A DNA stretch of 61,012 nt from a virus (Duplodnaviria; Caudoviricetes). The stretch spans positions 1 through 61,012 of IMG/VR virus record IMGVR_UViG_3300025120_000004, one strand, 5' to 3'. Below, one piece after another: positions 1 to 61,012 of the stretch. Position 1 is the first letter of the stretch; each line of letters begins with the position of its first letter. The notes under the pieces are model-generated. The model made no database searches and was not told the DNA's origin. It saw only the letters and a program-made list of their open reading frames with translations. A program made the position numbers and the translations under genes.

Positions 1-127
1 GGACAAAATCAAGTACATCTTTTGAAAGGGCAGGAGTAACGACTATAGATTTTGATCCTATAACAACTGCTTTAAGAGCTACAAGAAATACAGGAATGGA
101 TTATTTTATGAGTAATGAAATATCTAC
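1..127. repeat. Terminal direct repeat copy 1 (assembly circularity overlap)
   Basis: 1-127 is identical to 60886-61012; 127 nt equals a common maximal assembler k-mer and the repeat lies mid-gene. Confidence 0.95.
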
Positions 128-1778
128 TACTAGACAATCGATGGCTTCTTTAAAAAGAATTACAAAAAATGATGATTCTAAAACAGATAAACAGCAAGAC
201 CAATTAAATCAAGCTGTATTAGATTTAAATACAATATATAGCGAGGCTCTAAATAACGTTGTTACAAACAACATGAGTAGTACGGTATTAGGGGGTAAGT
301 GGTGGAATTACTTCAAAACTTTAGGATATTATTCAACGTTAGCATCTGTTCCAAGAGCTGGAGCGGAATACGCATCTAACCTTACTTTTGCTGCACTATC
401 AGCTCCTGGAGAATTTAGTTTAGGTGCGACAGTATACGCAGATCTTTCTTGGAACAACAAAGGAAGGGCTGTTGTTGAAAATGTAGCATCCACGAACAAC
501 ACAAAATTATATTCAGATGAGCAATTAGGTGGTTCAAAAGCAGATTCTCAGGGAGTTACAAAAAAGAAATCTTCTCCTGAAGCTAGAGGCAAGGCAGGTC
601 AAACATTTGAATATGTTGTAAGAAATACAGGAATAAAATATGTTCCAAAAGTAGTATCAAAAATAGGTGAAACATTAGTTACGAAGCCTGACCAAATGAT
701 AGCACGACCTTTGTGGTTTGGTACTTTTGCAAAAACATTTAAAGCGGAAACAGGTTCAAAAGTAGATTTTGATAAAATAGCTGATAATGATTCAGACTAT
801 ATGAACAAGTATAAAGATGCAATTCAAAAAGCAACATCAAAAGCAGACAATAATGTAACTATGGCTGCCACATCAAATGACCCATTTTCTTCGGTGTTAA
901 AAAACCAAGTCCAAGAAGGGGAGAGTGGGATGAATTTCTACAGAATGATAAACGGATATATGTCTAGATTTAGTCTTAATGAATATGCAACTGCTAGACA
1001 AGCGGTAGCCTCAATGACAGGACAAGGACAGTTAGGAGTAGTTAAAGGTGCGTCAACATTAGCAGGAGTTGGAGTCAGAATGTCTATGTATGTAATGCTA
1101 TTAAGATATCTAAACGGAGCAATGTTTGGAATGCTAGGTATTGGAGATGAAGACGATACGGATTATGAAGAATTAGGTATTCGACAAGGCGTAGGAGCTG
1201 TTACATCATTAATTACAAGAGGTGTATCTGGAAACATACCAATGATTCCGATGAACTATGCCATAGAGTCTTTAAATAAAGAGTATGGATATGATATAGG
1301 GTTAAGGTCAAAAGAAGAGTATAATGGTATGGAAGACGCTCTTGTATACGCTACTATAAATCCATCTAATGCTTCAAGAAATTTAGAAGAAGCTACATTG
1401 ATGCAATTGACAGGCCCTTTTAATCCTTACTTCAAAGCAGGATTTAGAGTTGCCAATCTAACAATTAGAGCTTTAAATAATAAAACAGAAGAAAGTAGAC
1501 AAGAAAATCTAAACAAATTATTTTCAAGTAGGACAGGTATTGAAGTAGCCAATCTGATTGGAGGCGTACCTTTTTATAGAGATATAAGAAAAGGATTCTT
1601 GGAAGAAGAATTTAAAGAAGATGATACAACTGTACCTTTTACTTTAGAAGAATTGAAGATTTATGACTCTAAAGAGTACAACATACAAATGAAACAAAAA
1701 AAAGCACCTAAAAGTCGTGACGAGTTAGATATAGAAAGAGAGCTAAAGGCTTTAGAAAAAGAATTAGAAGATTTATAA
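1..1778 (+). CDS. 3' part of giant ~2500-aa internal virion/ejection protein (starts at 55161, crosses the junction)
   Basis: ORF 96..1778 is in the same frame as ATG 55161 after removing the 127-nt overlap; last gene of the structural arm. Confidence 0.8.
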   Translation, partial: TKSSTSFERAGVTTIDFDPITTALRATRNTGMDYFMSNEISTTRQSMASLKRITKNDDSKTDKQQDQLNQAVLDLNTIYSEALNNVVTNNMSSTVLGGKWWNYFKTLGYYSTLASVPRAGAEYASNLTFAALSAPGEFSLGATVYADLSWNNKGRAVVENVASTNNTKLYSDEQLGGSKADSQGVTKKKSSPEARGKAGQTFEYVVRNTGIKYVPKVVSKIGETLVTKPDQMIARPLWFGTFAKTFKAETGSKVDFDKIADNDSDYMNKYKDAIQKATSKADNNVTMAATSNDPFSSVLKNQVQEGESGMNFYRMINGYMSRFSLNEYATARQAVASMTGQGQLGVVKGASTLAGVGVRMSMYVMLLRYLNGAMFGMLGIGDEDDTDYEELGIRQGVGAVTSLITRGVSGNIPMIPMNYAIESLNKEYGYDIGLRSKEEYNGMEDALVYATINPSNASRNLEEATLMQLTGPFNPYFKAGFRVANLTIRALNNKTEESRQENLNKLFSSRTGIEVANLIGGVPFYRDIRKGFLEEEFKEDDTTVPFTLEELKIYDSKEYNIQMKQKKAPKSRDELDIERELKALEKELEDL

Positions 1779-24116: not shown

Positions 24117-25547
24117 ATGAATTTTTTAAATACATTTTGGTATAATACTTCAGGAGCTTCTAGTTTTGAAACTAAATGGAGAACAAGTGCTAACAACCAA
24201 TCAATTACTTTACCTTATGAAAGCAGTGGTACTTACTCTGGAACTATTGATTGGGGAGATGGAACTGTTGTAGCAAATACTTATGCTAACAGAACTCATA
24301 CTTACGCGACTGGTGCAGATTACAACGTAATAATTGATGGAGAATGTTCAAAATGGAACTTTCAGGCAGTAAATACTTCTAAATCAAAAATAATTGAAGT
24401 ATTAGGTTGGGGGACGTATAGTTTTGAAACCTGTAATTTTACTAATTGTAATAGTTTTATTGGAGGTCCTGTTTGTAGGGATTTAATAAACTTATCTCCT
24501 AGTGCTAATCTTTCATTTAAGAGTTGTAATAAATTAACTACCATTCAAAATATAGAGTTTTGGGATATTAGTAATTTGACTAACACTTCATTTATGTTTC
24601 AAAGCTGCACACAATTTACTGCAGACTTATCTAATTGGGATATGAGCAATGTAACTAATGCATTTTTTATGTTTACAACTGCTAAAGCTTTTAATTCAGA
24701 TGTGAGTTCTTGGGATACTTCTTCAATAACAAATTTTACATACATGTTTGCTAATGCTGAAAGTTTTAATAGCGATATAAATTTTGATCTTACTTCAGCA
24801 ACTAATAATGCTTATGGATTGTTTAATGGATGTATTTCTTTTAATAGTGATGTTAGTGGAATGGATACAAGTACATTAACTGCTATGAACTTTATGTTTA
24901 ATGGTTGTACATCTTTAAATAATAATTCTATGATGGGTTGGGATGTGAGTAATGTAGAAAATATGACTAATATGTTTGCAAGTTGTGATTCTTTCGACCA
25001 AGATTTTACAACTTGGGATACATCTAATGTAAAGTATTGGTTTCGTATGTTTAGTAATGCTAAAGTTTTTAATGGTACGGTTAGTGTATTTGATACAAGT
25101 TCTGCAATAAGGATGACTTCTATGTTTCAGGGTGCTGATTTATTTAATCAACCAATAGGTAATTGGGATGTGAGTAATGTGACACAAATGGACCAAATGT
25201 TTTATTTTGCTCAAGATTTTAACCAAGATATTAGTAATTGGGATGTGAGCAAAGTACATAATTTCAAAGGAATGTTTCAAAATGCTGATGATTTTGATAA
25301 GCCCTTAACAAATTGGGATATTGTTTCGACTAATTCATTAACAATGGAGGATTTTATGCTTAATAAAACATTTAACAATTACAGTGCTACTAATTATGAC
25401 ATTTTACTTTCAAGATGTGAGCAAGGAGGGTTGTCAAATGTTACTTTAGATATGGGAACTATTAAATATACAATAGGAGGTCAACAACGTAAAAATTATT
25501 TAGTAAATACTAAAGGTTGGACAATAAGTGATGGAGGACTCGTTTAA
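24117..25547 (+). CDS. DUF285/BspA-like repeat protein (putative adhesin)
   Basis: About ten ~25-aa repeats FN..i..WDvSnvtnm..MF; N-terminal TIDWGDG PKD-like motif. Confidence 0.8.
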   Translation: MNFLNTFWYNTSGASSFETKWRTSANNQSITLPYESSGTYSGTIDWGDGTVVANTYANRTHTYATGADYNVIIDGECSKWNFQAVNTSKSKIIEVLGWGTYSFETCNFTNCNSFIGGPVCRDLINLSPSANLSFKSCNKLTTIQNIEFWDISNLTNTSFMFQSCTQFTADLSNWDMSNVTNAFFMFTTAKAFNSDVSSWDTSSITNFTYMFANAESFNSDINFDLTSATNNAYGLFNGCISFNSDVSGMDTSTLTAMNFMFNGCTSLNNNSMMGWDVSNVENMTNMFASCDSFDQDFTTWDTSNVKYWFRMFSNAKVFNGTVSVFDTSSAIRMTSMFQGADLFNQPIGNWDVSNVTQMDQMFYFAQDFNQDISNWDVSKVHNFKGMFQNADDFDKPLTNWDIVSTNSLTMEDFMLNKTFNNYSATNYDILLSRCEQGGLSNVTLDMGTIKYTIGGQQRKNYLVNTKGWTISDGGLV

Positions 25548-35168: not shown

Positions 35169-35452
35169 ATAATACTGAATTAAAATTAGAAATAATAAAA
35201 GCAGGTAAAAAAGCTGTAAAAGAACTTATAAAAGTTGCTAATGAAGGTATACTAAAAAAAGACCTAGATGGATTAGCTCCTGATATAGCAGCAGACAGAT
35301 TAAAAAATGCAGCGGCATCTAAGAAGCTTGCAATATTTGATGCTTTTGAAATCTTAACAAAGATTGAAGAAGAAAATAATATGATAGACATTAATAAAAA
35401 AGAAAGTAAAGCATCTTCATTTAAAGGATTTGCTGAAGGTAGATCAAAATAA
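35165..35452 (+). CDS. Putative terminase small subunit
   Basis: Small helical gene translationally coupled to terL; positional inference. Confidence 0.45.
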   Translation: MNNTELKLEIIKAGKKAVKELIKVANEGILKKDLDGLAPDIAADRLKNAAASKKLAIFDAFEILTKIEEENNMIDINKKESKASSFKGFAEGRSK

Positions 35453-37677
35453 TGTACGAACAAACTTTATATAAAATACTAGATGATATTATACCTGAAA
35501 AGGAATTAAAGTCTAATAATAAAAAAAAGGCTTGGGTATACGGATATAATAAAGAATATGATATTGTTGTTATATCAAAAGATGGTACAATTGGTGAGGT
35601 TTATGAAATACAAAATTTAAAGATTGCATTACCAAAACAAAAAAATGTTTATCGTTTTAATAAAAATCATTGGGGTCAAATAGAATATCCTAAAGAACTA
35701 AGTAAAATAAAAAGTGTTTTTGATTGGGATAAATATCCAGATAATTTTAAGGAAAAGTGGTATGACTATATTGACAAAGAGTTTGAAAGAAGGGAAGAAG
35801 GTTTTTGGTTTAATAACAAAAACAATCCTACTTACATTACTGGTTCTCATTACATGTACTTGCGGTGGACAAAAATTGATGTTGGGCAGCCAAACTTTAG
35901 GGAATCAAATAGATTATTCTTTATATTCTGGGAAGCTTGCAAAGCAGACTCAAGAAGCTATGGAATGTGTTACCTTAAAAATAGACGATCAGGATTTAGT
36001 TTTATGTCATCATCAGAATTGGTTCATCTTGCAACCACATCAAAAGATTCACGTTATGGAATTTTATCCAAAACAGGTTCTGATGCAAAAAAAATGTTTA
36101 CAGACAAAGTTGTTCCCATATCGCTCAATTATCCGTTTTTCTTCAAACCTATTCAAGATGGAATGGATAGGCCAAAAACGGAGCTTGCGTATAGAGTTCC
36201 TGCGTCAAAACTTACAAGAAAAAAACTTGATGCAAATGAATCTATTAAAGAGCTTGAAGGATTAGATACTACTATTGATTGGAAAAATACAGGAGATAAC
36301 TCTTATGATGGAGAAAAGTTAAAATTACTAGCTCATGATGAAAGTGGTAAATGGGAAAGACCAGACAATATACTTAATAATTGGAGAGTAACAAAAACTT
36401 GTCTTAGATTAGGAAGTAGAGTTATAGGAAAATGTATGATGGGAAGTACATCTAATTCTATTGAAAAAGGTGGTGGTAATTTTAAAAAATTATACTCAGA
36501 TTCTAACGTAAAAAAAAGAAATAGAAATGGACAAACTAAATCAGGTTTATATTCATTGTTTATACCTATGGAATGGAATTATGAGGGTTTTATTGATATT
36601 TATGGTCATCCTGTATTTGATGTTCCAGAAAAAGAAATAGAAGGTCCATTTGGAGATATTATAGACCAAGGTGTTATAGAGCATTGGACTAACGAGGTAG
36701 ATGGATTGAAGTCAGATCCTGATGGATTAAACGAATACTATAGACAATTTCCTAGAACAGAGTCTCATGCATTTAGAGATGAAAGTAAACAATCATTATT
36801 TAATCTTCAAAAATTATATCAACAAATAGATTACAATGATTCTTTAATAAAAGATAGAGTTGTCACAAGAGGTTCTTTTAGTTGGAATAATGGAATAAAA
36901 GATACTACAGTTATTTTTACTCCTAATAATTCAGGAAGATTTTATGTTTCTTGGACTCCTAATAAAAATTTACAAAACAATTATTACTTTAAGAATGGAA
37001 TTAAATATCCTGGAAATGACCACATGGGAGCTTTTGGATGTGATAGTTACGATATTAGTGGTACTGTTGGTGGCGGTGGAAGTAACGGTGCTTTACATGG
37101 AATGACTAAGTTTCACATGGATGAAGGTCCTACAAACCATTTTTTTTTAGAATATATAGCAAGACCTCAAACAGCAGAGATATTTTTTGAAGATGTATTA
37201 ATGGCTTGTGTGTTTTATGGAATGCCAATATTAATAGAAAATAATAAACCTAGATTATTATATCATTTTAAGAATAGAGGATATAGAGGGTATAGTATGA
37301 ATAGGCCTGATAGACAGTATAATAAACTATCCAAAACAGAAAAAGAATTAGGAGGAATGCCTAATAGTTCTGAAGACATTAAACAAGCTCATGCAGCTGC
37401 TATAGAATCTTACATTGAAAAACATGTAGGATTTGATTTATCTGGAGCTTTTAGAGCTGAAGATGAAATAGGTTCTATGTATTTTACAAGAACATTAACA
37501 GATTGGGCAAGATTTAATATTAATAACAGAACAAAGTTTGATGCTTCTATTAGTTCAGGTTTAGCTATAATGGCTACACAAAAAAACCTGTATCAGCCCA
37601 TTAAAAAGAAATCAAAAATAAAACTTAACTTTGCAAGATATGACAATAAGGGAAGTTATAGCCAAATTATACAATAA
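35452..37677 (+). CDS. terL: Terminase large subunit
   Basis: LKNRRSGFS (Walker A), HDESGK (Walker B), GSTSN, GCDSYD and IENN nuclease motifs, FDASISSGLA. Confidence 0.88.
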   Translation: MYEQTLYKILDDIIPEKELKSNNKKKAWVYGYNKEYDIVVISKDGTIGEVYEIQNLKIALPKQKNVYRFNKNHWGQIEYPKELSKIKSVFDWDKYPDNFKEKWYDYIDKEFERREEGFWFNNKNNPTYITGSHYMYLRWTKIDVGQPNFRESNRLFFIFWEACKADSRSYGMCYLKNRRSGFSFMSSSELVHLATTSKDSRYGILSKTGSDAKKMFTDKVVPISLNYPFFFKPIQDGMDRPKTELAYRVPASKLTRKKLDANESIKELEGLDTTIDWKNTGDNSYDGEKLKLLAHDESGKWERPDNILNNWRVTKTCLRLGSRVIGKCMMGSTSNSIEKGGGNFKKLYSDSNVKKRNRNGQTKSGLYSLFIPMEWNYEGFIDIYGHPVFDVPEKEIEGPFGDIIDQGVIEHWTNEVDGLKSDPDGLNEYYRQFPRTESHAFRDESKQSLFNLQKLYQQIDYNDSLIKDRVVTRGSFSWNNGIKDTTVIFTPNNSGRFYVSWTPNKNLQNNYYFKNGIKYPGNDHMGAFGCDSYDISGTVGGGGSNGALHGMTKFHMDEGPTNHFFLEYIARPQTAEIFFEDVLMACVFYGMPILIENNKPRLLYHFKNRGYRGYSMNRPDRQYNKLSKTEKELGGMPNSSEDIKQAHAAAIESYIEKHVGFDLSGAFRAEDEIGSMYFTRTLTDWARFNINNRTKFDASISSGLAIMATQKNLYQPIKKKSKIKLNFARYDNKGSYSQIIQ
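35762..36265 (+). CDS. Candidate lipoprotein nested in +1 frame of terL
   Basis: Long open +1 frame; basic residues, then ILLTLLVLIT, then Cys (35855). Confidence 0.35.
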   Translation: MTILTKSLKEGKKVFGLITKTILLTLLVLITCTCGGQKLMLGSQTLGNQIDYSLYSGKLAKQTQEAMECVTLKIDDQDLVLCHHQNWFILQPHQKIHVMEFYPKQVLMQKKCLQTKLFPYRSIIRFSSNLFKMEWIGQKRSLRIEFLRQNLQEKNLMQMNLLKSLKD

Positions 37678-40134
37678 ATGGAGGATGTAAAAATTTCATT
37701 AAACCCAACAGGATTTCCTAGTCAATTTGTTTCTGACTCAGAAAAAAAATCTTATGAGTTCGGTTTACAAATAGGCCAGGCTATTCAATACGAATGGTTT
37801 AGAAAAGATGGTCGTCAAAGTAGATTTTATAGTCAATGGGCAGAGTTTCATAGATTACGATTGTATGCTCGTGGAGAACAATCTGTACAAAAATATAAAA
37901 ATGAATTAGCTATTGATGGAGATTTAAGTTATTTAAATCTGGACTGGACTCCTGTTCCTATTATTCCAAAATTTGTAGATATAGTAGTCAATGGAATGGC
38001 TGATAGAATATTTAAAGTAAATGCTTATGCTCAGGATAGCATGTCTTTAGATAAAAGAAGTGAATATCAAAAACAACTTCAAAAAGATATGTTAGCTAAG
38101 CCTGTAATGAAACAGGTTCAACAAGATTTAGGAATAAATACTTTTGCTACATCAGAAGAAGATGTGCCTAATAGTTCTGAAGAACTAGCTTTGCACATGC
38201 AACTTAAATATAAGCCTTCAATAGAAATAGCTGAAGAAGAAGCTATAAATACAGTTTTATCTGAAAATAGATATTATGAAATACAAAAGCAATTGTATTA
38301 TGACCAGACAATATTGGGAGTTTCAATGTGTAAAAACACCTTTAAGCCAGGTTCAGGTATTTCTATAGAATATGTAGACCCTGCTAATGTAGTATATAGT
38401 TATACTGAAGATCCTCATTTTGATGATTGTTTTTACTGGGGAGAAATTAAAACAATTCCTATTGTAGAGTTAAAAAAAATAGATACTAGTTTGACTAGAC
38501 AAGATATGGATGAAATATCTAAATATAGTCAAAGTTGGTATAATTACAATAATACTGCTCAATATTATAACAATAGTTTATTTAGTAGAGATAGTGCTAC
38601 AGTTTTATTTTTTAATTATAAGACTACAAATACTTTTACTTATAAGAAAAAAGTAAATGCCTCTGGAGCTGAAAAAGTTATTGAAAAAGAAGATACTTTT
38701 AATCCTACTTCAGAAATGCAAGAAGAAGGTAATTTTAAAAAAGTTTCTAAAACAATAGATGTATGGTATGAGGGGGTTATGGTTATGGGTACTAATATTC
38801 TTCTAAAATGGGAAATGTCTGAAAATATGGCTAGACCTCAATCTGCATCTCAAGAAGTTTATCCTGAATATGTAGCTTGTGCGCCTAGAATGTATAAAGG
38901 TGTTTTTGAATCATTAGTTAGACGTATGATTACGTTTGCAGATTTAATACAAATTACTCATTTAAAATTACAACAAGTAATATCTAGAGTAGTTCCTGAT
39001 GGTGTATTTATAGATGCAGATGGATTAAATGAAGTAGACTTAGGAACAGGGCAGGCATATAATCCTGAAGATGCATTAAGAATGTTTTTTCAAACAGGTT
39101 CTGTTATTGGTAGAAGCTATACACAGGATGGAGATTTTAACCAAGCTAAAGTACCAATACAACAATTAAACAGTAATTCAGGACAAGGTAAAATAAATAG
39201 CTTAATAGGTTCATATAATCATTATATGCAAATGCTAAGAGATGTTACAGGCCTCAATGAAGCTAGAGATGGATCAACACCAGATTCTTATTCATTAGTT
39301 GGATTGCAAAAATTAGCTGCTTTAAGTAGTAATACTGCAACCAGACATATTTTAGATGCAGGTTTACAAATAAGCCAAAGGCTATGTACTGCTTTATCTA
39401 GTAGAATTGCTGATTTATTAGAGTATTCAGAATTTAAAGATGAATTAACTAATCAGATAGGAAGATTTAATGTTTCTATAATTGATGAAATTAGTAAATT
39501 ATATTTAAGTGACTTTGGAATATTTATAGAAATAGAACCTGACGAAGAAGAAAGAAAAATGCTAGAACAAAATATTCAAATGGCATTACAAAGAGATTCT
39601 ATAAATTTAGAAGATGCTATTGATATAAGAGAAATAAGAAATTTAAAGTTAGCTAATCAAATACTTAAGTTAAAAAGAATAGGTAAACAAGATAGAGAGC
39701 AAAAAGAAAAAGCTGCTGCTGCACAGCAACAAGCTCAGATTAATGCTCAGTCTCAACAGATGGCAGCTCAATCAAAAATGCAACAATTCCAAATGGAAAA
39801 TCAAGCTGCTGTACAATTAGAGCAAGCTAAAAGTCAGTTTGCAGTTCAAAAAATGCAAGGTGAAGCTGCGATAAAAGCAGAGCTTATGAATCTTGAGTTT
39901 TCACTTCAAATGAAATTAAAAGGAGTAGATATAGATTTAAAAAAGATGGAGCAGGAAGGTTTGCAAAAACGAGAAACTGAAAGAGAAAATGCTAAATCAA
40001 ATAGAATATCTCAAGCTAATACAGAGCAATCAAAACTTATAGAGCAAAGAAAAAATAATCTACCTTCAGTTAGTTTTGAATCAAATGAAGATAGTTTAGA
40101 TGGATTTGACTTAGCAGAATTTGAGCCTAGATAG
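37678..40134 (+). CDS. Portal protein
   Basis: After terL; LRLYARGEQ, PIIPKFVDIVVNG, RDVTGLNEARDG, Gln-rich coiled-coil C-terminus. Confidence 0.8.
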   Translation: MEDVKISLNPTGFPSQFVSDSEKKSYEFGLQIGQAIQYEWFRKDGRQSRFYSQWAEFHRLRLYARGEQSVQKYKNELAIDGDLSYLNLDWTPVPIIPKFVDIVVNGMADRIFKVNAYAQDSMSLDKRSEYQKQLQKDMLAKPVMKQVQQDLGINTFATSEEDVPNSSEELALHMQLKYKPSIEIAEEEAINTVLSENRYYEIQKQLYYDQTILGVSMCKNTFKPGSGISIEYVDPANVVYSYTEDPHFDDCFYWGEIKTIPIVELKKIDTSLTRQDMDEISKYSQSWYNYNNTAQYYNNSLFSRDSATVLFFNYKTTNTFTYKKKVNASGAEKVIEKEDTFNPTSEMQEEGNFKKVSKTIDVWYEGVMVMGTNILLKWEMSENMARPQSASQEVYPEYVACAPRMYKGVFESLVRRMITFADLIQITHLKLQQVISRVVPDGVFIDADGLNEVDLGTGQAYNPEDALRMFFQTGSVIGRSYTQDGDFNQAKVPIQQLNSNSGQGKINSLIGSYNHYMQMLRDVTGLNEARDGSTPDSYSLVGLQKLAALSSNTATRHILDAGLQISQRLCTALSSRIADLLEYSEFKDELTNQIGRFNVSIIDEISKLYLSDFGIFIEIEPDEEERKMLEQNIQMALQRDSINLEDAIDIREIRNLKLANQILKLKRIGKQDREQKEKAAAAQQQAQINAQSQQMAAQSKMQQFQMENQAAVQLEQAKSQFAVQKMQGEAAIKAELMNLEFSLQMKLKGVDIDLKKMEQEGLQKRETERENAKSNRISQANTEQSKLIEQRKNNLPSVSFESNEDSLDGFDLAEFEPR

Positions 40135-51051: not shown

Positions 51052-51825
51052 ATGACATTAAATATACCAACATATACATTAACATTTAGTGAATCAGTAA
51101 AAGGATGGCCTTCTTTTTATAGCTACAAACCTGAGTTTATATTAGGTATGAATCAATACTTATATACTTTTAAAAATGGTAAGTTATTCAGGCACAATAC
51201 TAATCCTATTAGAAATCAATATTATGGAGTAAATTATACATCTACAATAACAAGTGTTTTTAATCAAGAGCCTACTAAGGTAAAAGTATTTAAAACAATT
51301 GAACTAGAGAGTGATGATTCGTGGGATTGTCAAATAACAACAGATTTAGGTGCAGGAATTATAGACCAATCATATTTTGAGAAAAAAGAAGGTGCTTGGT
51401 TTTCTTTTATTAGAAGAATAACAGGTAGTCAAGACTTTTCTTTAAGGTCAACACAGGGTATAGGTACTTTTCTTTTAGCGACAGGTGTATCTCCTGATCC
51501 AATAACATTAGATTTTAGTGTGTCTATAAGCAATATAATTAACTATGGAGATGAAGTTTTTTATAGTGATGGAACTACTACTGATAAAATAGGTTTAATA
51601 ACAGCTATAGGAGAAGGCAGAAAGTCTATTACAATCGATAGCACTTCTTTTACACCTGTGGGTTCAGGTGTTCCAGCAGGAGCATATATATTCACTTCAA
51701 AAAACAGTATAGCAGAATCTTACGGAACAACAGGTTACTATATGGAGTTTAAATTAACCAATGACAGTCAGGATGCAGTTGAATTATTTACTGTTGACTC
51801 TGACGTCTTTCAAAGTTATCCATAG
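51052..51825 (+). CDS. Tail nozzle C-terminal-like protein
   Basis: TLTFSE..KGWPSF.S..PE, KVFKTI.LE, F..KEG.WF, ELF.V.S. Confidence 0.55.
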   Translation: MTLNIPTYTLTFSESVKGWPSFYSYKPEFILGMNQYLYTFKNGKLFRHNTNPIRNQYYGVNYTSTITSVFNQEPTKVKVFKTIELESDDSWDCQITTDLGAGIIDQSYFEKKEGAWFSFIRRITGSQDFSLRSTQGIGTFLLATGVSPDPITLDFSVSISNIINYGDEVFYSDGTTTDKIGLITAIGEGRKSITIDSTSFTPVGSGVPAGAYIFTSKNSIAESYGTTGYYMEFKLTNDSQDAVELFTVDSDVFQSYP

Positions 51826-53238: not shown

Positions 53239-55161
53239 ATGGGAAATAAATTAGATTCAATAAGATATGCATTAGGTCAAGGCCTTACAGGTGTAGCAAA
53301 GCCAACAAAAACTTTAGAGGCTGTTGATAATTTTGTAGAGGATGTAGAAGCTTGGAAAAAAAACATAGACGATCAACGTCTTAAGTTAAAAACTGATACT
53401 GAAACAAAAGTAAGAGAAGCTGAAAAAGAAGCTTATGCTAATTTACCTAATACTAAGACAGAAAGAGACCTTGTAATACAAGGTCTAGCTAATTATAAGG
53501 ATATGCTTTATAATAATATGTCTATGGTTCAGAATGGTGTTTTAAAACCAGAAGATAATCTTATATTTCAGGAAAACGGAAAGCAATCATTTGAAATAGC
53601 TGCTGATTTAATAAATAACTATAGCACTAGAAAAGAACAAGCCATGAAAGAGGCTAGTGGATATTATGATGATGAAGGAAATTTTGTAGAACCTACAGCA
53701 GGAGATTATCAAGCTGCTCTTCAACGAATAAATGATGAGTTTATGATTCCAGGGGGACAGGAATTTAAATTTATGAGCAATGGAATGGGTAATATTACTA
53801 TGTTCAAAACTAAAATTGATGAAGAAACAAAAACAAAAGTTTTAGATTTAGATGCTGACGGAAATCCAATTCCAATAGAGGGTCTGTCTAACGTTCCTAT
53901 GTTAGCTTATCAAAACAACAGAAATGCTAATGCCCCTATGTTCGTTCTTGCTAATGAGGTTACTAAGTTCACAAGAAAAGATGGTCTTTTAGCTACTTCT
54001 TATCAGGAGCTGATTGATGTTGAAGGCATGGTGGGTGGTGTTAAGGATAATATGAGTCAAAGCCCAGGGTTTCAGGAGTCAGTAAAACAGGCATCAAGTT
54101 CTCTTACTAATACTGTTCCTAAAGTTGTTAGTATGTTAGCAGACAATGGACCTGATGCACAACAAACAACAACATTGACTCCTTCAGAATGGGATGCTTT
54201 ATCTGATGCACAAAAAAACGAAACTATATCTTTTGAATATACTGATTTTGATGGTTCAACTAAAAAAGGAGTTAAAAGTAAATATCTACAGGTTAAGCTT
54301 GCTACTAATAATTCAATGGTCGCTGTACTAAGTGACCGAGATCAATTGGCAGCAGAACAAATAGCACAGACAGCTCTTATATCTTCATTAGAGCAAACCA
54401 TAGACCCAGGAGTAAAGGTTGGTGATTTCGCTGCACGAGTAGACCCAAACAAGGATAAGCAAGTAGATACTTTTACACTTATTGACCAAGTAGTGATAGA
54501 TGGAAATTCCAACAGCTTAGAAGCTATAGTTAGGCAAGACCAAAATATAAATGATTACAAAGTTACTAAAGAAGGTATTGTCTTTGTAAAGACAGATGGA
54601 ACTCTAACAGCTCCTATTGACGTTAGCTCAGGTTCTGCTGTTGATGTAGGTAAGCTGTTTGCTTCAGAGCTAGGATATAATGCAGAAACATACGCTAATA
54701 AATCTAAAGCAGGCTCAGTAATTATTAACACAAAAGTTAAAGATTTCACAGGCTTTACGTCTCCTAGAGAAGAATACGGAGGTCTAGGTAGATTAGCTAT
54801 TAGTAAGGATAAAAATAAAATTACCTATGCGTCTGAATATATTAAAAAAGCTGATGAAAGATTGATGGCAGCTCAAGCTCAGGTTGTAGTTGATAAGGCT
54901 CGTGCAAGGTATGGGAATATACCTAATATAAGAGTAAGTTTTGATGACTTATCTAAGCCGAATGGAGAAGATGAGATAAATCTAACTATAGATGGAGTGA
55001 AATACAAAAACGTAGGTTATACATCAGATAATTATCAATGGTTAATGGAGAATATAGATAGAGCGTTAATAGGAGAAACACCAGAGGGGAAAATTAGTGG
55101 AGGTAGTACAAATAGTGGAGGTGGAGGTTTAGATAATCTAGGTAAAAAAGAAGGTGAATAA
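53239..55161 (+). CDS. Internal virion/ejection protein (640 aa)
   Basis: Position between small and giant ejection genes. Confidence 0.55.
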   Translation: MGNKLDSIRYALGQGLTGVAKPTKTLEAVDNFVEDVEAWKKNIDDQRLKLKTDTETKVREAEKEAYANLPNTKTERDLVIQGLANYKDMLYNNMSMVQNGVLKPEDNLIFQENGKQSFEIAADLINNYSTRKEQAMKEASGYYDDEGNFVEPTAGDYQAALQRINDEFMIPGGQEFKFMSNGMGNITMFKTKIDEETKTKVLDLDADGNPIPIEGLSNVPMLAYQNNRNANAPMFVLANEVTKFTRKDGLLATSYQELIDVEGMVGGVKDNMSQSPGFQESVKQASSSLTNTVPKVVSMLADNGPDAQQTTTLTPSEWDALSDAQKNETISFEYTDFDGSTKKGVKSKYLQVKLATNNSMVAVLSDRDQLAAEQIAQTALISSLEQTIDPGVKVGDFAARVDPNKDKQVDTFTLIDQVVIDGNSNSLEAIVRQDQNINDYKVTKEGIVFVKTDGTLTAPIDVSSGSAVDVGKLFASELGYNAETYANKSKAGSVIINTKVKDFTGFTSPREEYGGLGRLAISKDKNKITYASEYIKKADERLMAAQAQVVVDKARARYGNIPNIRVSFDDLSKPNGEDEINLTIDGVKYKNVGYTSDNYQWLMENIDRALIGETPEGKISGGSTNSGGGGLDNLGKKEGE

Positions 55162-58100
55162 TGGAAGAGTTATATAATGCACTTGTTGAACAAGGAAAAT
55201 ACACAAAATCTTTTGAGGATTTTAAAGTACAGTTTGGAGAGCCTGAAAAAACTAAACTTCTTTATGATGCATTAAATTCTTCAGGAGATTACACTAAATC
55301 TTTTGAAGACTTTACGTATCAATTTGGATTCGCTGAAAAAAAAAATCAAGTCGTTACTCCTTCCACTTCAGAAGAGGTCGTTACGGAATCCACTACAGAA
55401 ATCACGCAACCAACAATTCCTGGCTCTTCGGATTCTTCCGAAAATATTCCTGATGTACAGATTGAAAACAATGTAGAAATTAAAGAGGATTTAGAAGTTA
55501 CAGATATACCTGAACAAAAATACTCTAATGAGTTATTTGATGAATTAACTTCTCAAGTACAAATAGCTCAACAAATAAATACCGAACAAAATAAAAGAAA
55601 CTTTTATAAAAATAAAGCTGAATCTTCTTTTGTTAGAAGAAAACCGAAACCAAAAAAGAAAAATCCTGATGCCTTATTAGAAATAGATAACGATTTAAAA
55701 GAAAAAATATTAAGCGATTTTAATATTAGAAAATCTATTGAATATGGAATTGTTAGCGAAACAGATGTAGATAATGCTCTTAAAGGAGATATTAATTTAA
55801 TAAATAAATTAAAAGAAATATCTGTAAAAAATCCAAAGGAATACAAAAAATTATTAAGCGAAAAAAGATTAGATAAAACTTATGCTTTTGAAGAAACATC
55901 TGAATTAAATGAATACCAAGTTAATCAAGATGAAGAATCTAGAAGTTTAGATTTAAAGAAAAAGATTGAAGCTTATGATTTAGAGACACAAAGACTTTTA
56001 GCTGAAAATCCTAATGCAACTGAACAAGAAATAAATGAATTAGTTTATAGGCCTAACGACCCTAACACTTATACAGATGAAGAATTTGAAATTTATGAGA
56101 ATATGGATTATTCTCCAACTGGATTTGAAGATTCTAACATACATAAAATGTATGACAGTGAAAAGTTAAAGTCAATTGAAGGATTTAATGTAAAAGATTT
56201 TGATGGGTACTTAAAAGAGCAGGGATACATGGACAGATACGTGGAGCTTCTTGATGACGAAACTATATCTGAAGATGGAAGATATCAAGATTATTCAGGG
56301 AACTACAATCCAACTCTTGCAGCCGAAAGATTAAAAGCACAATATTTAACAAACTACATAAATAATCAAGTAGAAAGAAATGTAGAGTTTCAAGTTTTAG
56401 ATTATCAATTAAAAAATAAAGGCCGACACCCTTCTTTAGATGGTGTAGAAATTAGTTTTAATACAGGGGTAGATGATATTGCTATGGCTTCTTACATAGA
56501 GGAACAATTTCCTACATTAACTGCAAAGCTTAAAAACCAAGATGTTGAAAATCAAGAAAACTATCAAAGATATTTAGATGGAGATAACCCTTGGTTTACA
56601 CAATCGGTAAAACAAGGTTGGCGTTCTGTAGAAGATAGATTACATAGCTCTTCTAAAGGAGTTTATGGATTTATTGGAATGAATAGTGTGGCTGATGAAA
56701 TACGAATGCGAGATGCTCAAGATGATTTAGAGAGAGATGATTTTATGAGATATGCATATACGTCAGGTAAAAAATCTTTTTATAATGGTAGAGAGTACGG
56801 AATAGATGAAAGAGGTCAGATATTTGATTTAGAAATAAAGAAAAACGTAACAAACGTTTTAACAGATACTATGGCTGATGCTATAAGAAAAAAGGTAGCT
56901 GGAAGCAGTGAGACATTTAAAAGTTTTAGTGGCTCAGGTACGGTAATAGCAACAACAGGTATAGCTGCTGATATGTTATTGCAAATATCTCTTACTCGTG
57001 GAGTAGGTAATTTAGGTAGAGGTGGTGCGGCTTTTTTAGGTAGTTTCGATAAAGGTAAAAAAGTTGTTAGTGGATTATCTAGTATACCAATGAAAGCAAC
57101 TACAGCTTCGGCTATGATTGCTCAAGGAACATTATTTTCAACTAATTTAGCTAGTAGCACTTATGACCAGGCTATTGCTAATGGATTAGATCAAGCTACA
57201 GCTATAGAACTAAGGCAAAAGGCAGGTATGCAGGGATTTGGATTAGGGTCATTAACAGCTCCAATATCTACACAGACTCTAGCCATGAATAAAATATTTG
57301 GTAAAAAGGGAACTGAAAAACTAAGTAGAGGACTTGTTGATGCTTATCAAAAAGCAGGAGATAAAGGTTTTGCTGCATACATTCAAAGGGTTAAAGGAAC
57401 AATAATACAAAACTATCCTTCTTATTTAAAAGAAGGAGGTAAAGAGATATTTCAGGAAAATGTACAGCAGGCAGGTCAAGCTTTTGTGATTGCAGAAAAT
57501 GTAAATGAGATTGCACAAAAAGAAATAATGAATAACACCATTACAGGTGCGGAGTACACAAACACAACAATACTAGCAGGTCTTGCAGGTTTATTAATGC
57601 CTTTTGGTGGTGATCTTAAATCAGCCACATCTAAATCTATTAAGGCTAACTTTAGTCCAGGGGAAGCCGCAATTGACAGATTAGAAGCTTTACATGGTTT
57701 ATCTAAAGATGTAGATAAAACAAAAGAGTTTTTAAATAGTATGGTAACCAAAGGTGTTTATACTGAGGAACAAGTTTCTAATCTATTGTCTGATATTGAT
57801 TTGTATGTAAACACTATAAACAGTATACCAACAAACTTGAGTCCTGAAACTTCATTGTTTGTAATGCAGTCAATTAACGACATTCAAAAACAAGAGGAGT
57901 TAAAAAAGAAAAGAGATAAATCATTTCATCCAGAGATAGATGAAAAAATACAAGAACTTAGAAACGAAATAACAACACGAACTCAATTTGATTATGTTAA
58001 TGCACAAGGCAAGTTAAGGCTAAAGGACCAAGCAGCCAAAGAACTTACTAGAGAAGCAGAAGAAAGAGGAGAAAAGAATTTTACTATAGATGATGGAGCT

Positions 58101-61012
58101 ATAACTCAGAGAGCTGTAGACAACTTTAGTATAATGGATGTAGATGAAAAGTTAGAATATACAGACTTAAATAAACAAGATTTAAAAACCGATAAAAAAC
58201 AAGACGATGCCATTCAAAAGCCAAGCACAGAGGAGCAAGTGTTACAAGATGATGCAGGAAGCGAAAAAGAGGGGGGAGACTCCCAAGTGGAACTGCGACA
58301 AGTGGGAGAAGGAGACATTGAGTCAGACACTACCCAAACGAAAGAAGAAGAAAGTGAAACGCAAACCGATACAACTAGCGACACGACTACGCAGACAGAT
58401 ACTGAACAGTTAGTAACTGAAGAGACATATACGCTACCTGAAACAGAAAAGGGGAGGGAAGAAGACTTTGAGATTATAGACAATCGACAAGGTAAAGCGG
58501 ATCTAGAAATATTTGAGGATGGTGAAGGAAAATGGTATGTTGAAAACAAAAAAACAGGTAGAACTGTCGCACTTAGAACAAAGGCTCAGGCTAAGGCTGA
58601 AGTAAAAAACCCAACTTATGATTATGGTGAGGGAGATGTTATTCAGGTAACTCAAGAAACAACTAAATCAACACCTTCCCCCACAGTAGACACATCCACT
58701 GATGAGGAAGTGATGAGTGTGAACAATAAGATTGAGTCATTTGCAAATCGTATTGTTGAAGGAGGAAATCAAGAATCTTTTTCAGATGATGCAATTCAGT
58801 TTTATGCCGAAAATAGAGAAGCAATTGATAAAGCCGTTGCTCAAAAGAAAAAGAATATTCCTAAAGATAAGTCACGAGAAAGAACTTTAGCTATCAAAAT
58901 TGCTAGAGGAGATACAGAGTTCAGTAATGCAGATATAGATTTATACGCAGGTTCTGAAGCTGATGTTCAAGCTGAGGTAGAAGCTATTGCTAAAACAAAT
59001 AGTCAAACCGTAACAGCCGACACATACAAAGCCATATTAGCTTCAACAAAAAGCACTACCAATAAAGATATGGCAAAGCCTGAAACGGAAAATGCACAAA
59101 GAAAAAGATTTTGGAAATCGTGGAATCAATCTGCTAAAGAAAAGAAAATGGACTTGAAGCAGAAAAGAAAAAGTCTAAATGATGGTATAAAAGCCTATGC
59201 AAAAAAGAGAAAAGGTAAAATTACTGTTCCTCAACTTAGAGCTGTTTTAAACAAAATAAATAATGAAAAATTCAATTTAGATAATCCTGCTGCTGTCAAA
59301 GAAATTCAGCAGTATGTAGAAAAAGTTTTTTCTGATGCAGATTTTGCAAATGATATTGATATAGCAAACAAACTAAAAACAAGAGCTACTAAAAAACTAA
59401 ACTCAGGGAAACTAGGAGATAACGGAAACTTAAATGGAGCTGTGTCTCAAATAATTTTAGCTCCTGTAACTGATTTAACTCCTTCTCAACTAAAATCATA
59501 CAATGAGTTTTTACAAAAAATAGCTAAACGAGACAAAAAAACAAAATTAGATAGAGAGTTAATTCAAGAAGCAAATGATTTACTTAACTCTATAACTCCT
59601 AAGGCAGAAACTGAACAGGCGCTAGCTAAAATTGAAAAGCAAAAAGAAAGTGATAAAAAAGTAGTAAATAAAATTCTTAACCCAGAGGTAAGTGGAGAAA
59701 CTATTATAGAAGAAAACTCTGATTTCATTCAAAATAAATTAGATGCTTTAGACTCTGGCACATTAGAAATTCTTGTTGATAAAGTAAATGCAGCAGAAAA
59801 CGAAAGCAACTCAGAGCTTGTTCAAGAGTTAAATGATTATGCAGAGAATAGACAAAAGCTTATAAATAACACTACTAAAAAGTCTAGAAACGTAAACTTA
59901 AATAACCTAAGCAAAATTTCTTTAGAACAAAGTGTTGGCCCTAGAACTTTAAAAGGTTTAAATAAAGGTCAGTTAGCGATGCTTACAGGAACAGAGCTTT
60001 CTCAGCTAGATGTTTATTTAGATAATATGTCTGAAGGTTTTTATACTCATTTCACAAATAATATAGCTCAAAAAGTAGCTGCTAATGATAGGTCTGTTAA
60101 TATGAAACCTATTTTAGATAAAATGTTTACAGTAAAAGGTAAGTTTTCTACCATGAGACAGTATGCAGCTGCTAGTGTAAAAAATGAATTAGGAAAGGTT
60201 GGCTTTGGTTCTTCAAAAGCGGCTAGACAGATAGGTATTAGAGGTCAAATGATTAGGTCTAACCCACTAAGTGTCATGGATCAAATGTTTGGGAACTATA
60301 AAAACAATACTATATATGAAAATGCTATACGACCTACTGCACAAGCGCACGCTAGATTTAAAAATTGGATTAACGGACAGACTGATACTATTGATACAAT
60401 AGAGTCTTTAATAGCACCTAGTAGAACAGAAGGTATAAATCAATCGGTAAAAAGAAGATTTGAATTAACGACATACTTGCTACAATTAGAATATGAATCT
60501 AACCCAAACAAAAGGGGAACTAACCCAGCTATAAAGTTTATAGAAGATACTATAGACAGATATAATTCTGATAAAAGAGGTAGTAAGTATAATGAAAATA
60601 GTATAGCTATACTTAAGAAAATAGCAAAACAGTACAGTCAGAATGGGCAAATATCTCTCAAAAAGATGGATGATGCTATGTCTACAAAAACTAAAAAAGC
60701 ATTAAAACTATTACAAGGCATTTATTCAGGTTTAGGAGAGCTTCAATCTTATGCAACTAGAATTGTTAGAGGTAATGAACTTGACTTAGTAAATAATTAT
60801 GTTCATCATAAAGCGGATTTTAAAGGTGAAGAAATAGACGATGCTAATTTTCAAAACGCAATAAGTTTTTTAAGTTTGAAGCCAGGGACAAAATCAAGTA
60901 CATCTTTTGAAAGGGCAGGAGTAACGACTATAGATTTTGATCCTATAACAACTGCTTTAAGAGCTACAAGAAATACAGGAATGGATTATTTTATGAGTAA
61001 TGAAATATCTAC
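55161..61012 (+). CDS. 5' part of giant ~2500-aa internal virion/ejection protein
   Basis: ATG overlaps the previous TAA; MEELYNALVEQGKYTKSFEDF...; no closed ORF in the track implies the frame stays open to the window end; continues to 1778. Confidence 0.8.
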   Translation, partial: MEELYNALVEQGKYTKSFEDFKVQFGEPEKTKLLYDALNSSGDYTKSFEDFTYQFGFAEKKNQVVTPSTSEEVVTESTTEITQPTIPGSSDSSENIPDVQIENNVEIKEDLEVTDIPEQKYSNELFDELTSQVQIAQQINTEQNKRNFYKNKAESSFVRRKPKPKKKNPDALLEIDNDLKEKILSDFNIRKSIEYGIVSETDVDNALKGDINLINKLKEISVKNPKEYKKLLSEKRLDKTYAFEETSELNEYQVNQDEESRSLDLKKKIEAYDLETQRLLAENPNATEQEINELVYRPNDPNTYTDEEFEIYENMDYSPTGFEDSNIHKMYDSEKLKSIEGFNVKDFDGYLKEQGYMDRYVELLDDETISEDGRYQDYSGNYNPTLAAERLKAQYLTNYINNQVERNVEFQVLDYQLKNKGRHPSLDGVEISFNTGVDDIAMASYIEEQFPTLTAKLKNQDVENQENYQRYLDGDNPWFTQSVKQGWRSVEDRLHSSSKGVYGFIGMNSVADEIRMRDAQDDLERDDFMRYAYTSGKKSFYNGREYGIDERGQIFDLEIKKNVTNVLTDTMADAIRKKVAGSSETFKSFSGSGTVIATTGIAADMLLQISLTRGVGNLGRGGAAFLGSFDKGKKVVSGLSSIPMKATTASAMIAQGTLFSTNLASSTYDQAIANGLDQATAIELRQKAGMQGFGLGSLTAPISTQTLAMNKIFGKKGTEKLSRGLVDAYQKAGDKGFAAYIQRVKGTIIQNYPSYLKEGGKEIFQENVQQAGQAFVIAENVNEIAQKEIMNNTITGAEYTNTTILAGLAGLLMPFGGDLKSATSKSIKANFSPGEAAIDRLEALHGLSKDVDKTKEFLNSMVTKGVYTEEQVSNLLSDIDLYVNTINSIPTNLSPETSLFVMQSINDIQKQEELKKKRDKSFHPEIDEKIQELRNEITTRTQFDYVNAQGKLRLKDQAAKELTREAEERGEKNFTIDDGAITQRAVDNFSIMDVDEKLEYTDLNKQDLKTDKKQDDAIQKPSTEEQVLQDDAGSEKEGGDSQVELRQVGEGDIESDTTQTKEEESETQTDTTSDTTTQTDTEQLVTEETYTLPETEKGREEDFEIIDNRQGKADLEIFEDGEGKWYVENKKTGRTVALRTKAQAKAEVKNPTYDYGEGDVIQVTQETTKSTPSPTVDTSTDEEVMSVNNKIESFANRIVEGGNQESFSDDAIQFYAENREAIDKAVAQKKKNIPKDKSRERTLAIKIARGDTEFSNADIDLYAGSEADVQAEVEAIAKTNSQTVTADTYKAILASTKSTTNKDMAKPETENAQRKRFWKSWNQSAKEKKMDLKQKRKSLNDGIKAYAKKRKGKITVPQLRAVLNKINNEKFNLDNPAAVKEIQQYVEKVFSDADFANDIDIANKLKTRATKKLNSGKLGDNGNLNGAVSQIILAPVTDLTPSQLKSYNEFLQKIAKRDKKTKLDRELIQEANDLLNSITPKAETEQALAKIEKQKESDKKVVNKILNPEVSGETIIEENSDFIQNKLDALDSGTLEILVDKVNAAENESNSELVQELNDYAENRQKLINNTTKKSRNVNLNNLSKISLEQSVGPRTLKGLNKGQLAMLTGTELSQLDVYLDNMSEGFYTHFTNNIAQKVAANDRSVNMKPILDKMFTVKGKFSTMRQYAAASVKNELGKVGFGSSKAARQIGIRGQMIRSNPLSVMDQMFGNYKNNTIYENAIRPTAQAHARFKNWINGQTDTIDTIESLIAPSRTEGINQSVKRRFELTTYLLQLEYESNPNKRGTNPAIKFIEDTIDRYNSDKRGSKYNENSIAILKKIAKQYSQNGQISLKKMDDAMSTKTKKALKLLQGIYSGLGELQSYATRIVRGNELDLVNNYVHHKADFKGEEIDDANFQNAISFLSLKPGTKSSTSFERAGVTTIDFDPITTALRATRNTGMDYFMSNEIS
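58207..58413 (+). CDS. Overprinted small basic protein (MPFKSQAQR...) in +1 frame of the giant gene
   Basis: A-rich start context, protein-like sequence, local codon anomaly in the host frame. Confidence 0.55.
   Translation: MPFKSQAQRSKCYKMMQEAKKRGETPKWNCDKWEKETLSQTLPKRKKKKVKRKPIQLATRLRRQILNS
58707..58726 (+). repeat. Dispersed motif copy (GAAGTGATGAGTGTGAACAA)
   Basis: 58711-58725 is identical to 13131-13145. Confidence 0.75.
60886..61012. repeat. Terminal direct repeat copy 2
   Basis: Identical to 1-127. Confidence 0.95.

Follow-up and report, generated by a model that had tools for sequence, protein, structure and literature searches.

A conserved run of ten adenines and an overlapping start-less reading frame in a giant gene of Flavobacteriia-type podophages: a probable recoding site

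The DNA studied here, referred to as the window, is the virus record IMGVR_UViG_3300025120_000004 at its full length of 61,012 bases, a complete record with direct terminal repeats (IMG/VR class). The final gene of its structural module is a giant open reading frame (ORF). An uninterrupted run of ten adenines (A10) begins in the 59th codon of this gene, and from the run a second ORF overlaps the gene in the -1 frame. Runs of at least nine A's cause transcriptional slippage in bacteria. The A10 and the putative hidden tail frame recur with hardly any change in more than 100 related phage sequences. It is highly probable, judging from this conservation, that the A10 is a conserved programmed recoding site and that the recoded isoform is real and selected, whichever machine slips.

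Organization of the locus

The following features make up the site (positions are those of the window).

55161..61012 (ORF 55161..61010), plus strand: giant 0-frame ORF, 1950 codons to the end of the record, final gene of the structural module
55161..55337, plus strand: shared N-terminal part, 59 codons from ATG through GAA, with two repeats of about 25 residues (LY.AL...G.YTKSFEDF..QFG)
55333..55453, plus strand: conserved nucleotide island (cassette), common to phages with unrelated flanks
55334..55336, plus strand: TGA stop of the -1 frame, immediately 5' of the run
55336..55345, plus strand: A10 homopolymer, the proposed slip site, with the 0-frame codons GAA AAA AAA AAT
55337..55453, plus strand: -1 frame ORF (putative tail), 38 codons KKKSSRYSFHFRRGRYGIHYRNHATNNSWLFGFFRKYS, then TGA at 55451-55453

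The ATG of the giant gene at 55161 overlaps the preceding stop codon as TAATG. The gene spans the 61012/1 junction and continues in a 5'-open ORF at 3..1778, for a total of about 2500 residues across a join that was not reconstructed. The two copies of the N-terminal repeat are LYNALVEQGKYTKSFEDFKVQFG and LYDALNSSGDYTKSFEDFTYQFG; a search of all six frames found their motif nowhere else in the window. This N-terminal part would be common to the giant protein and a short isoform. Since the TGA at 55334-55336 precedes the run, translation of the -1 ORF could not start independently and would have to enter it from the 0 frame within the run. The T-GA10 context is identical in every cassette of the window's type. 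The predicted short isoform has 97 residues (59 + 38 codons), and its tail is basic (Lys/Arg) and rich in aromatic residues.

In the 0 frame the cassette reads as a low-complexity linker of S/T/E/P in rare codons. The 36 codons after the run have a mean log relative codon frequency of -1.434, compared with a gene mean of -0.831 (sd 0.157). This is the third lowest value of 1914 windows of the giant gene; when all genes are taken together (2317 windows), it belongs to the lowest 0.04%. The rare codons of the stretch are GTC, TCC, ACG, TCG and GGC, each of which accounts for 2-6% of its family. Their use can be explained by the -1 frame: a codon ending in T, if followed by GAA or GAT, would produce a TGA stop there, and the Y-G and F-G of the tail are encoded by ACG-GAA and TCG-GAT. 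A first-pass annotation of this DNA had described the N-terminal repeats, the A10, the upstream -1 stop without a start, the tail ORF and the TGA at 55451, and all of these are present where it had placed them. Its estimate of a product of about 97 residues agrees with the codon count, and the codon scores bear out its remarks on an atypical 0 frame (GTC, TCC, ACG, TCG) of low complexity in S/T/E.

A runs are not enriched in the window. The A9 pattern has 6 matches where 11.2 are expected, and 90 of 100 shuffles reach at least 6. The site is the sole A10 in the window and the sole sense-strand A run of at least nine inside a gene; the other four runs of nine are three intergenic ones and one T9 in the terminase gene.

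Conservation of the run in uncultured phages

Relatives were collected in four samples, each drawn without selecting for the run. The first sample was drawn by the giant protein itself. It comprises L001-L006, with 53-71% identity over the first 700 residues, together with L050 and L048 from a profile of residues 174-700, the latter on the same contig as L020. All of these loci have exactly A10 at the homologous place. In L002 and L003 the residues at the run are VKKKD instead of EKKN; the run again has ten A's, and its position in the codon register differs by one base.

For the second sample a DNA pattern was derived from the conserved downstream stretch, with the run itself excluded, and it was found in 33 viral contigs. 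All 32 contigs with upstream sequence have exactly A10, located 41-48 nt upstream of the matched pattern; the 33rd contig ends 22 nt before the pattern. The same run-free pattern in metagenome contigs gave the third sample, for which 80 of the 86 reported stretches were analysed. A10 is present in 56 of these loci and in one further, incomplete locus, and A12 in another; the other 22 are chance matches, either GC-rich or unrelated in other ways. When the window, the viral and the metagenome loci are pooled, 92 loci with 46 distinct cassettes result, 45 of them with A10 and one with A12. The A12 copy (L123) lies on a metagenome contig of 2959 nt, where the N-terminal ORF thereby enters the non-conserved +1 frame.

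For the fourth sample viral contigs were scanned by the tail motif [FWC][SG][RKN]GxYG[IV][HRY]Y, derived from an alignment of short proteins (A4, see below), which yielded 70 loci, 68 of them parsed. A run of exactly ten was found in 67 of the 68 and A11 in the remaining one. The tail frame is the -1 frame of the N-terminal frame in all 68, and the N-terminal frame is open to the end of the locus, 171-538 codons further on. The two unparsed loci (L163 and L172) also have a run of at least nine before the tail. The contexts of the run in this sample are TGA10T/C, [GT]TA10G, CCA10G and TCA11G. The run is found in two codon registers (GAA AAA AAA AAY and NTA AAA AAA AAA G) with its length unchanged, and a G-interrupted run occurs in none of the four samples.

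The first-pass annotation had expected homologs to share the A run and an aromatic -1 peptide ending in W.FG(F). Both were recovered, with A10 in nearly every distinct cassette and a tail family that ends in W-x-x-G-x-F. It had further named AAG-broken runs or a lack of conservation in the -1 frame as signs against recoding. Neither was encountered in the four samples; a lineage of three contigs does have AAG at the site, yet keeps the -1 ORF. Its reading of the site as programmed recoding is thus supported, since run and -1 peptide are conserved in non-identical homologs.

The run in cultured and deposited phages

The nearest GenBank phages were reached via terminase/portal synteny, with portal identities of 28-66%. 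They are one uncultured Podoviridae genome, Maribacter phage Panino, 68 Flavobacterium 'elemo' phages, Cellulophaga phages and Tenacibaculum phage Gundel_1. A blastn comparison of the cassette with GenBank phages gave chance matches only (E >= 2). Searches of GenBank phages with the first 700 residues of the giant protein and with the tail peptide gave no match, and a DNA search likewise returned nothing useful. All six syntenic records that were opened have a run of A9-A11 at 33-63 codons into the giant gene, without nucleotide similarity to the cassette of the window.

MW202828.1, 3859-codon coding sequence: A11 at codon 63, in frame with the giant ORF; predicted tail with one extra A KKKRRGRPKYKRYCIKLGRYSICIERKY
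elemoF gp18, 3695 residues: A10 at codon 57 (CCT GAA AAA AAA AAT); predicted tail KKKSKLDYHFNKNSFGFSYTTTRKKTYIGWRKTKNNWGFGIFCWER
phi38:1 gp101, annotated as structural protein: A10 at codon 33; predicted tail KKKRKRRAFGIEFYLWSGSFKFGWFRL
Gundel_1 gp074: A10 at codon 50; predicted tail KKKRRRSYVTRFTIGWGKRCYHFYFGWRSVDSD
Maribacter phage Panino, PP540027.1 (L056:35244-35444): A9; annotation of the giant gene begins at a later start and names it 'tRNA methyltransferase'; a spurious ORF is annotated on the opposite strand
Cellulophaga phage phi13:2, NC_021803.1 (L060:2119-2400): A9; gene split into gp126 (87 residues, 'structural protein') and gp127

The tail of MW202828.1 is basic and Tyr-rich and has no W..G.F motif. 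Panino and phi13:2 have A9; therefore, their N-terminal ORF is out of frame with the giant ORF. One added A would fuse the giant ORF in these two records, and two added A's would give a tail with W-F-[IF]-G-[FW]. The genome of phi13:2 was reportedly sequenced by 454, which miscounts homopolymers.

In the fetched stretches the site is the sole A/T run of at least nine in MW202828.1 (30 kb), elemoF (28 kb), Panino (42 kb) and phi38:1 (39 kb). It is one of two such runs in phi13:2 and the sole run of ten in Gundel_1.

Over the run region, none of the 68 elemo records falls below 99% identity. Among the 60 listed, 59 show 100% identity in the matched part, which includes the run in the 53 records that cover it. 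In the region L055:16780-17000, 27 of the 60 listed records start 90 nt before the A10 and a further 7 start with the run itself. The elemo assemblies appear to break at the run, and this could reflect read-level length heterogeneity or homopolymer error.

Coding character of the -1 frame

In an openness test the 0-frame peptide was fixed and synonymous codons were drawn from the genome usage in 5000 recodings. The -1 frame of the window was open in 0.6% of these recodings, and for 24 cassettes the open fraction was 0.000-0.030 each. In relatives (20,000 trials with the usage of their own giant genes) the frame was open in 1.3% of the recodings for MW202828.1, 2.0% for elemoF, 4.9% for phi38:1 and 1.3% for Gundel_1. 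Because these four lineages have no common nucleotide similarity, their improbabilities multiply. The -1 ORF has a length of 34-41 codons in the 46 cassettes and of 27-46 codons in the cultured and deposited relatives; the length of the +1 ORF varies from 11 to 65 codons.

The peptide encoded by the -1 frame is conserved as well. In L006 the 0-frame sequence PGSLDSS is replaced by PGSLASL with the tail WLFGFF unchanged, i.e. the 0-frame replacements are silent in the tail frame. In the first tail set G14, Y16, G17, Y20, W29, G32 and F34 are invariant. The wider set contains 52 distinct tail peptides, in which G, Y-G and G-x-F are invariant and conservative swaps occur (W/Y, I/V/L and F/A/C/V/W).

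A profile of 21 tails was compared with 1.84 billion representative proteins (E <= 0.001). It returned 20 proteins of 78-112 residues with E values from 1e-15 to 2e-4, six of them at E <= 1e-10. In each of these 20 matches a variable two-repeat domain comes first, followed by a KKK junction and then by the tail, which forms the extreme C-terminus; this is the architecture of the predicted isoform. Two further in-frame short proteins, P0003 and P0010, came from a word-based search. Ten of the in-frame short forms were looked up, and all ten are singletons on contigs of 709-9069 nt. Most simply, the in-frame short proteins are gene calls on contigs with one A more, which are due to homopolymer miscounts or rare variants; they show the architecture and not expression. 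Alignment A4 consists of 19 of the 20 profile matches together with P0003 and P0010; P0020 was left out. In P0020 (82 aa) the N-terminal domain is joined directly to the tail (..EEFKSFLRWGRGSYGIYY..) without KKK or run, and this protein is either a deletion variant or an assembly artefact.

The same proteins could also be taken as traces of a contingency locus at the DNA level. Replication slippage would then generate genome sub-populations with A9, A10 or A11, which do or do not encode the giant protein. Twenty-two predicted proteins with the tail in frame would fit such a locus, including P0003, which is encoded on a contig of 26,980 nt; the singleton status of the ten short forms on their short contigs, on the other hand, is what homopolymer errors would produce. 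Likewise, the A9 that splits the gene in Panino and phi13:2, the A12 of one metagenome contig and the apparent assembly breaks in 34 of 60 listed elemo records, which start 90 nt before the run or at it, have to be set against the near-identity of all elemo records over the run and against a giant frame that is intact in 68 of 68 parsed viral contigs. Run-length polymorphism among close genomes, by which a phase-variable site is recognized, was not found among the 68 elemo records. Therefore, we regard a contingency locus as highly improbable and retain recoding during expression as the preferred explanation.

The cassette as a module

The N-terminal sequences upstream of the island are of at least six clearly different kinds. 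They comprise 33-87 codons, mostly as two short repeats rich in aromatic and acidic residues. The giant proteins downstream also differ between the carriers of the cassette. Contigs of other phages from three sequencing runs match the window only at 55333-55363 or 55333-55399 and then diverge. The island thus resembles a module joint, and recombination may use it. Recombination does not explain the presence of the run with a like tail in lineages without nucleotide similarity.

RNA structure was considered as a cause of the nucleotide conservation and was rejected on consensus energy and shuffle score. RNAalifold on 25 sequences gave -0.39 kcal/mol with 4 pairs and 0 compensatory changes, i.e. 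no conserved structure. The 141-nt fold of the window is no better than its shuffles (z = +0.73), 149 of 200 of which fold at least as well.

A different view of the island is that it gives rise to no useful second product. The run would then be a Lys-rich hinge or a translation damper, and the open -1 frame would ride on an island that is kept, or was recently exchanged, for another reason, e.g. as a recombination joint. Unrelated sequence on both sides is indeed expected for such a joint, and within the nucleotide-similar group conservation extends to the 0-frame motif TES...PGS. This view is further helped by the weak support that substitution ratios and column entropy lend to -1 coding (see below). 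Outside the nucleotide-similar group, however, elemoF, phi38:1, Gundel_1 and many of the 52 tails keep the run and the aromatic/Gly pattern, and the open frame is improbable in each lineage (0.013-0.049 in the relatives and 0.000-0.030 in the cassettes). A run without purpose would moreover be expected to break by synonymous AAG, as lysine is encoded by AAA in only 48-86% of cases in these giant genes. Its -1 frame would have no reason to be held at 34-41 codons when the +1 frame is not. Hence, an island without a second product appears quite improbable to us, and a recoded short protein is preferred.

Model of the short protein

The tail was modelled by AlphaFold2 with the 21-sequence alignment. 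The predicted structure has three antiparallel strands (residues 6-12, 15-22 and 27-35) with a predicted local distance difference test score (pLDDT) of 76.9. A single-sequence model of P0003 has three N-terminal helices followed by strands (pLDDT 64). Along each predicted strand aromatic residues alternate with basic or small ones. The models suggest that the tail has one aromatic and one cationic face.

Comparisons with known families gave few matches. P0003 belongs to no Pfam or PHROG family. Among the 21 short forms compared with Pfam, one has a weak match to AntA and one to YhfC, and the others have none. The best match of the short forms to PDB profiles has E = 0.58. Foldseek of the tail model against the PDB found nothing at E <= 0.001, the generic beta-meander matches being at E >= 0.88. 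An ESM Atlas look-up of a short form gave a best value of 0.85, which is below the meaningful level. A likeness to WW domains had been suspected from the aromatic spacing; it did not appear in Foldseek and was dropped.

Proposed mechanism

We propose the following mechanism. Standard decoding of GAA AAA AAA AAT would continue into the rare-codon S/T/E linker and yield the giant virion protein of about 2500 residues. In a fraction of expression events one A would be gained, most likely by slippage of RNA polymerase on the 10-A run. Alternatively, ribosomes might slip or slide by -1 on the same run. The shifted reading would enter the overlapping -1 ORF and end 38 codons later, so that a 97-residue protein would result. 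This protein would consist of the 59-residue two-repeat domain and the tail rich in Lys/Arg and aromatic residues. Run and overlapping ORF would form a portable cassette of about 120 nt, which is joined to various N-terminal domains and giant proteins in many Flavobacteriia-type podophages. The sequences show the anatomy of the site, its conservation and the improbability of the open -1 frame; from them we infer the occurrence of the shift, its frequency and level, and the role of the short protein.

Sequence alone cannot decide between transcription and translation as the level of the slip, because both give the same protein. Roughly estimated, transcription is the probable level, the ribosome is a possible but clearly less likely one, and both together or some other route would be improbable. 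The run has the properties of a slippage site: it is an uninterrupted A run of at least nine, and it is conserved with its overlapping ORF in non-identical homologs. Conservation of this kind serves as a criterion for slippage in PMC1088944. Slippage of RNA polymerase is favoured because the run is kept at ten, never at the seven of a heptamer, and never contains synonymous AAG. It is also favoured because ten A's fit the RNA-DNA hybrid of 9-10 bp quoted for slippage (PMC5009743), because insertions prevail in the A and T runs of bacterial transcriptomes (PMC5574713) and because there is no conserved stimulatory structure. Since no phage RNA polymerase was found among the ten large early-region proteins scanned, the host RNA polymerase is the likely transcriber.

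The same short isoform could be made by ribosomal -1 frameshifting or by sliding of lysyl-tRNA on A AAA AAA. This alternative concerns the mechanism and would leave the recoding site itself in place. Both codon registers contain A AAA AAA as an in-phase heptamer. Such a heptamer would suffice for the ribosome, yet the run is exactly ten in 45 of 46 cassettes and in 67 of 68 loci of the tail-motif sample. A conserved downstream structure, which would be expected to stimulate frameshifting, was not found. Three contigs without the run (L051-L053) keep the -1 ORF with A AAG, which would suit a ribosomal slip only. In addition, E. coli dnaX employs ribosomal frameshifting where Thermus uses transcriptional slippage, according to PMC1088944. 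Taking both sides together, we consider the ribosomal route rather unlikely and slippage of RNA polymerase the better explanation.

Several observations weigh against a recoded isoform. The ratio of nonsynonymous to synonymous polymorphism (pN/pS) in the first set is 0.73 for the -1 frame, 1.03 for the 0 frame and 1.18 for the +1 frame, and in the wider set, outside the search motif, it is 0.81, 1.00 and 0.98, respectively; both differences are weak. Column entropy peaks at the third position of the tail frame (1.29 compared with 1.18 and 1.10), though not significantly, with permutation p values of 0.19 and 0.076. Constraints from the overlapping frames blunt both tests. Assembled contigs were compared from two RNA runs (X16 and X17), from X2, which is probably DNA, and from X7, the kind of which is not on record, out of 24 candidate runs. 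DNA contigs bridge the run as A10 without an indel, and no RNA contig of this phage crosses it. Many of the contigs in the samples are close relatives or the same contig in two collections, so that the counts are not independent. A few deposited records have a run of another length (A9, A11 or A12), which could be due to sequencing error or to real variation of the DNA. The fold of the tail comes from medium-confidence models only, as the above pLDDT values of the single-sequence and the alignment-based model indicate.

Furthermore, the run is not universal, since L051-L053 (on the contigs of L007 and L008) lack it and have GCA AAG ATA or GTA AAG ACA at its site. These loci have the N-terminal repeat domain of the window, a -1 ORF of 34-42 codons with a related peptide (..RYGIQIG.[WA]F[LIF]G..) and a different downstream protein. 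Their site is either a decayed cassette or one that is entered by a weak ribosomal A AAG slip.

As to function, our guess is that the short protein is a virion or ejection accessory, which docks via the shared N-terminal domain and binds membrane or nucleic acid with its tail. Because the short form has the N-terminal domain of the virion protein, a partner or competitor at the docking site of this domain is the simplest guess. A wider proposal can be offered tentatively. The slip cassette may be a shared unannotated gene of several Flavobacteriia podophage families from the sea and from freshwater (Elemovirus, Pervagoviridae, Pachyviridae and uncultured ones), in which stuttering of the host RNA polymerase would set the ratio of the giant protein to a small partner of about 80-110 residues. 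The cationic/aromatic mini beta-sheet of this partner, a new domain, would engage either packaged DNA or the envelope of the host, infection would require the short protein, and cassette exchange would recombine N-terminal domains and giant proteins. We hold this proposal as a whole to be possible, though somewhat doubtful.

Comparison with known recoding systems

The closest bacterial counterpart is dnaX of Thermus thermophilus (tau/gamma), as described in PMC1088944. There, too, a sense-strand A run lies within a long ORF and standard decoding gives the long product. An altered A count leads to a shorter product with the same N-terminus and a nearby stop in an alternative frame; slippage on the A9 of dnaX yields about 50% of the shorter product. 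Unlike in dnaX, the run of the phage is located 2-3% into a giant structural gene, and the alternative frame would encode a conserved domain of 34-41 residues. The phage conserves only one of the two alternative frames, its gene is not a replicase, and the case is known here from sequence alone.

P3N-PIPO of potyviruses is similar in that a start-less -1 ORF within a very long ORF is entered by one added A at G-A(n), and that an N-terminal part is fused to a trans-frame domain, which is functional in potyviruses (PMC5027478, PMC4552492 and PMC5009743). Potyviruses are RNA viruses with a viral RNA-dependent RNA polymerase and an A6 site (GA6), whereas the phage has double-stranded DNA, presumably a host multisubunit RNA polymerase, and A10; there is no sequence relationship.

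With gpG/gpGT of phage lambda and with E. coli dnaX the site has in common one start, a shared N-terminus and the -1 direction. According to PMC5009743 and PMC10885494, both systems produce two proteins in a set ratio, and the structural or assembly module of G/GT is conserved across many tailed phages. In lambda, a long-tailed phage, the frameshift gives the longer product and occurs at a heptamer of the G GGA AAG type near the 3' end. In contrast, the present phage would make a shorter product from a 10-A run, for which no stimulatory structure was found, and is short-tailed with a crAss-like muzzle domain. Shigella spa13/mxiE resembles the site in position and scale, as the slip occurs after about 58 codons of an injection-apparatus gene and 25-30% of the product is altered (PMC5009743). 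Unlike in the phage, the slipped product of this bacterial gene is longer and functional. The kind of mechanism is known; this instance of it is new and unusual in its architecture.

The first-pass annotation had known of no earlier description for such genes, and our literature searches found none for the site; supplements and the original Cellulophaga genome/proteome paper were outside their scope. Frameshift, slippage and homopolymer are not mentioned in the North Sea flavophage paper (PMC8776804) or in the Baltic Flavobacterium phage paper (PMC7077304), and the Cellulophaga methyl-proteome paper (PMC13288928) has no mention of gp101, frameshift or slippage.

If the shift is real, abundant marine flavobacterial phages each encode one more conserved protein than their annotation shows, inside their largest structural gene. 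The site would add to a small number of examples of programmed slippage in DNA phages, be it of the polymerase or of the ribosome on poly-A, and would clearly exemplify an overlapping ORF that lacks a start and has persisted over large evolutionary distances. The run explains annotation errors such as the gp126/gp127 split in phi13:2 and the truncated giant gene in Panino. It also offers a way to study the assembly or delivery of the giant internal proteins of short-tailed phages. The claim is directly testable, as cultured phi38:1 and elemo phages exist. Infection transcriptomes of phi38:1 reportedly exist. Infection proteomics has been published for phi38:1 on Cellulophaga baltica (PMC13288928). 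The predicted diagnostic tryptic peptides of the trans-frame products are listed below.

Window: NHATNNSWLFGFFR
phi38:1: AFGIEFYLWSGSFK
elemoF: NNWGFGIFCWER

Genome context

The structural module of the window is of the podophage type and includes several 'virion structural protein' families (PHROGs). The following genes were assigned.

35452-37677: large terminase (PHROGs)
37678-40134: portal (PHROGs)
51052-51825: protein with the C-terminal domain of the crassvirus muzzle protein (Pfam PF25729, E = 2.6e-17)

Because of the muzzle-domain matches of the protein at 51052-51825, this 61-kb phage appears to have tail parts in common with Crassvirales. The same protein also matches the C-terminal part of a 1497-residue virion protein family, phrog_14478.

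The first 1950 residues of the giant protein have no Pfam or PHROG match; its C-terminal part matches phrog_32588 (function unknown). In phi38:1, Gundel_1 and elemoF the annotation of the homologous giant gene reads 'structural protein'. From these labels and from the place of the gene after the muzzle-like gene we infer that it encodes an 'ejection' protein.

The T9 mentioned above is located at 37140-37148 on the sense strand of the large terminase gene (CAT TTT TTT TTA). Its alternative frames stop within 3-16 codons, and it looks like chance. Elsewhere, the window encodes a C-5 cytosine DNA methylase (11107-12150; PF00145, E = 3e-50), a GroEL-type chaperonin (20369-21940; PF00118, E = 2e-56) and a DUF285 repeat protein (24117-25547; E = 6e-77). 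Going by annotation, GroEL/GroES genes are also present in relatives.

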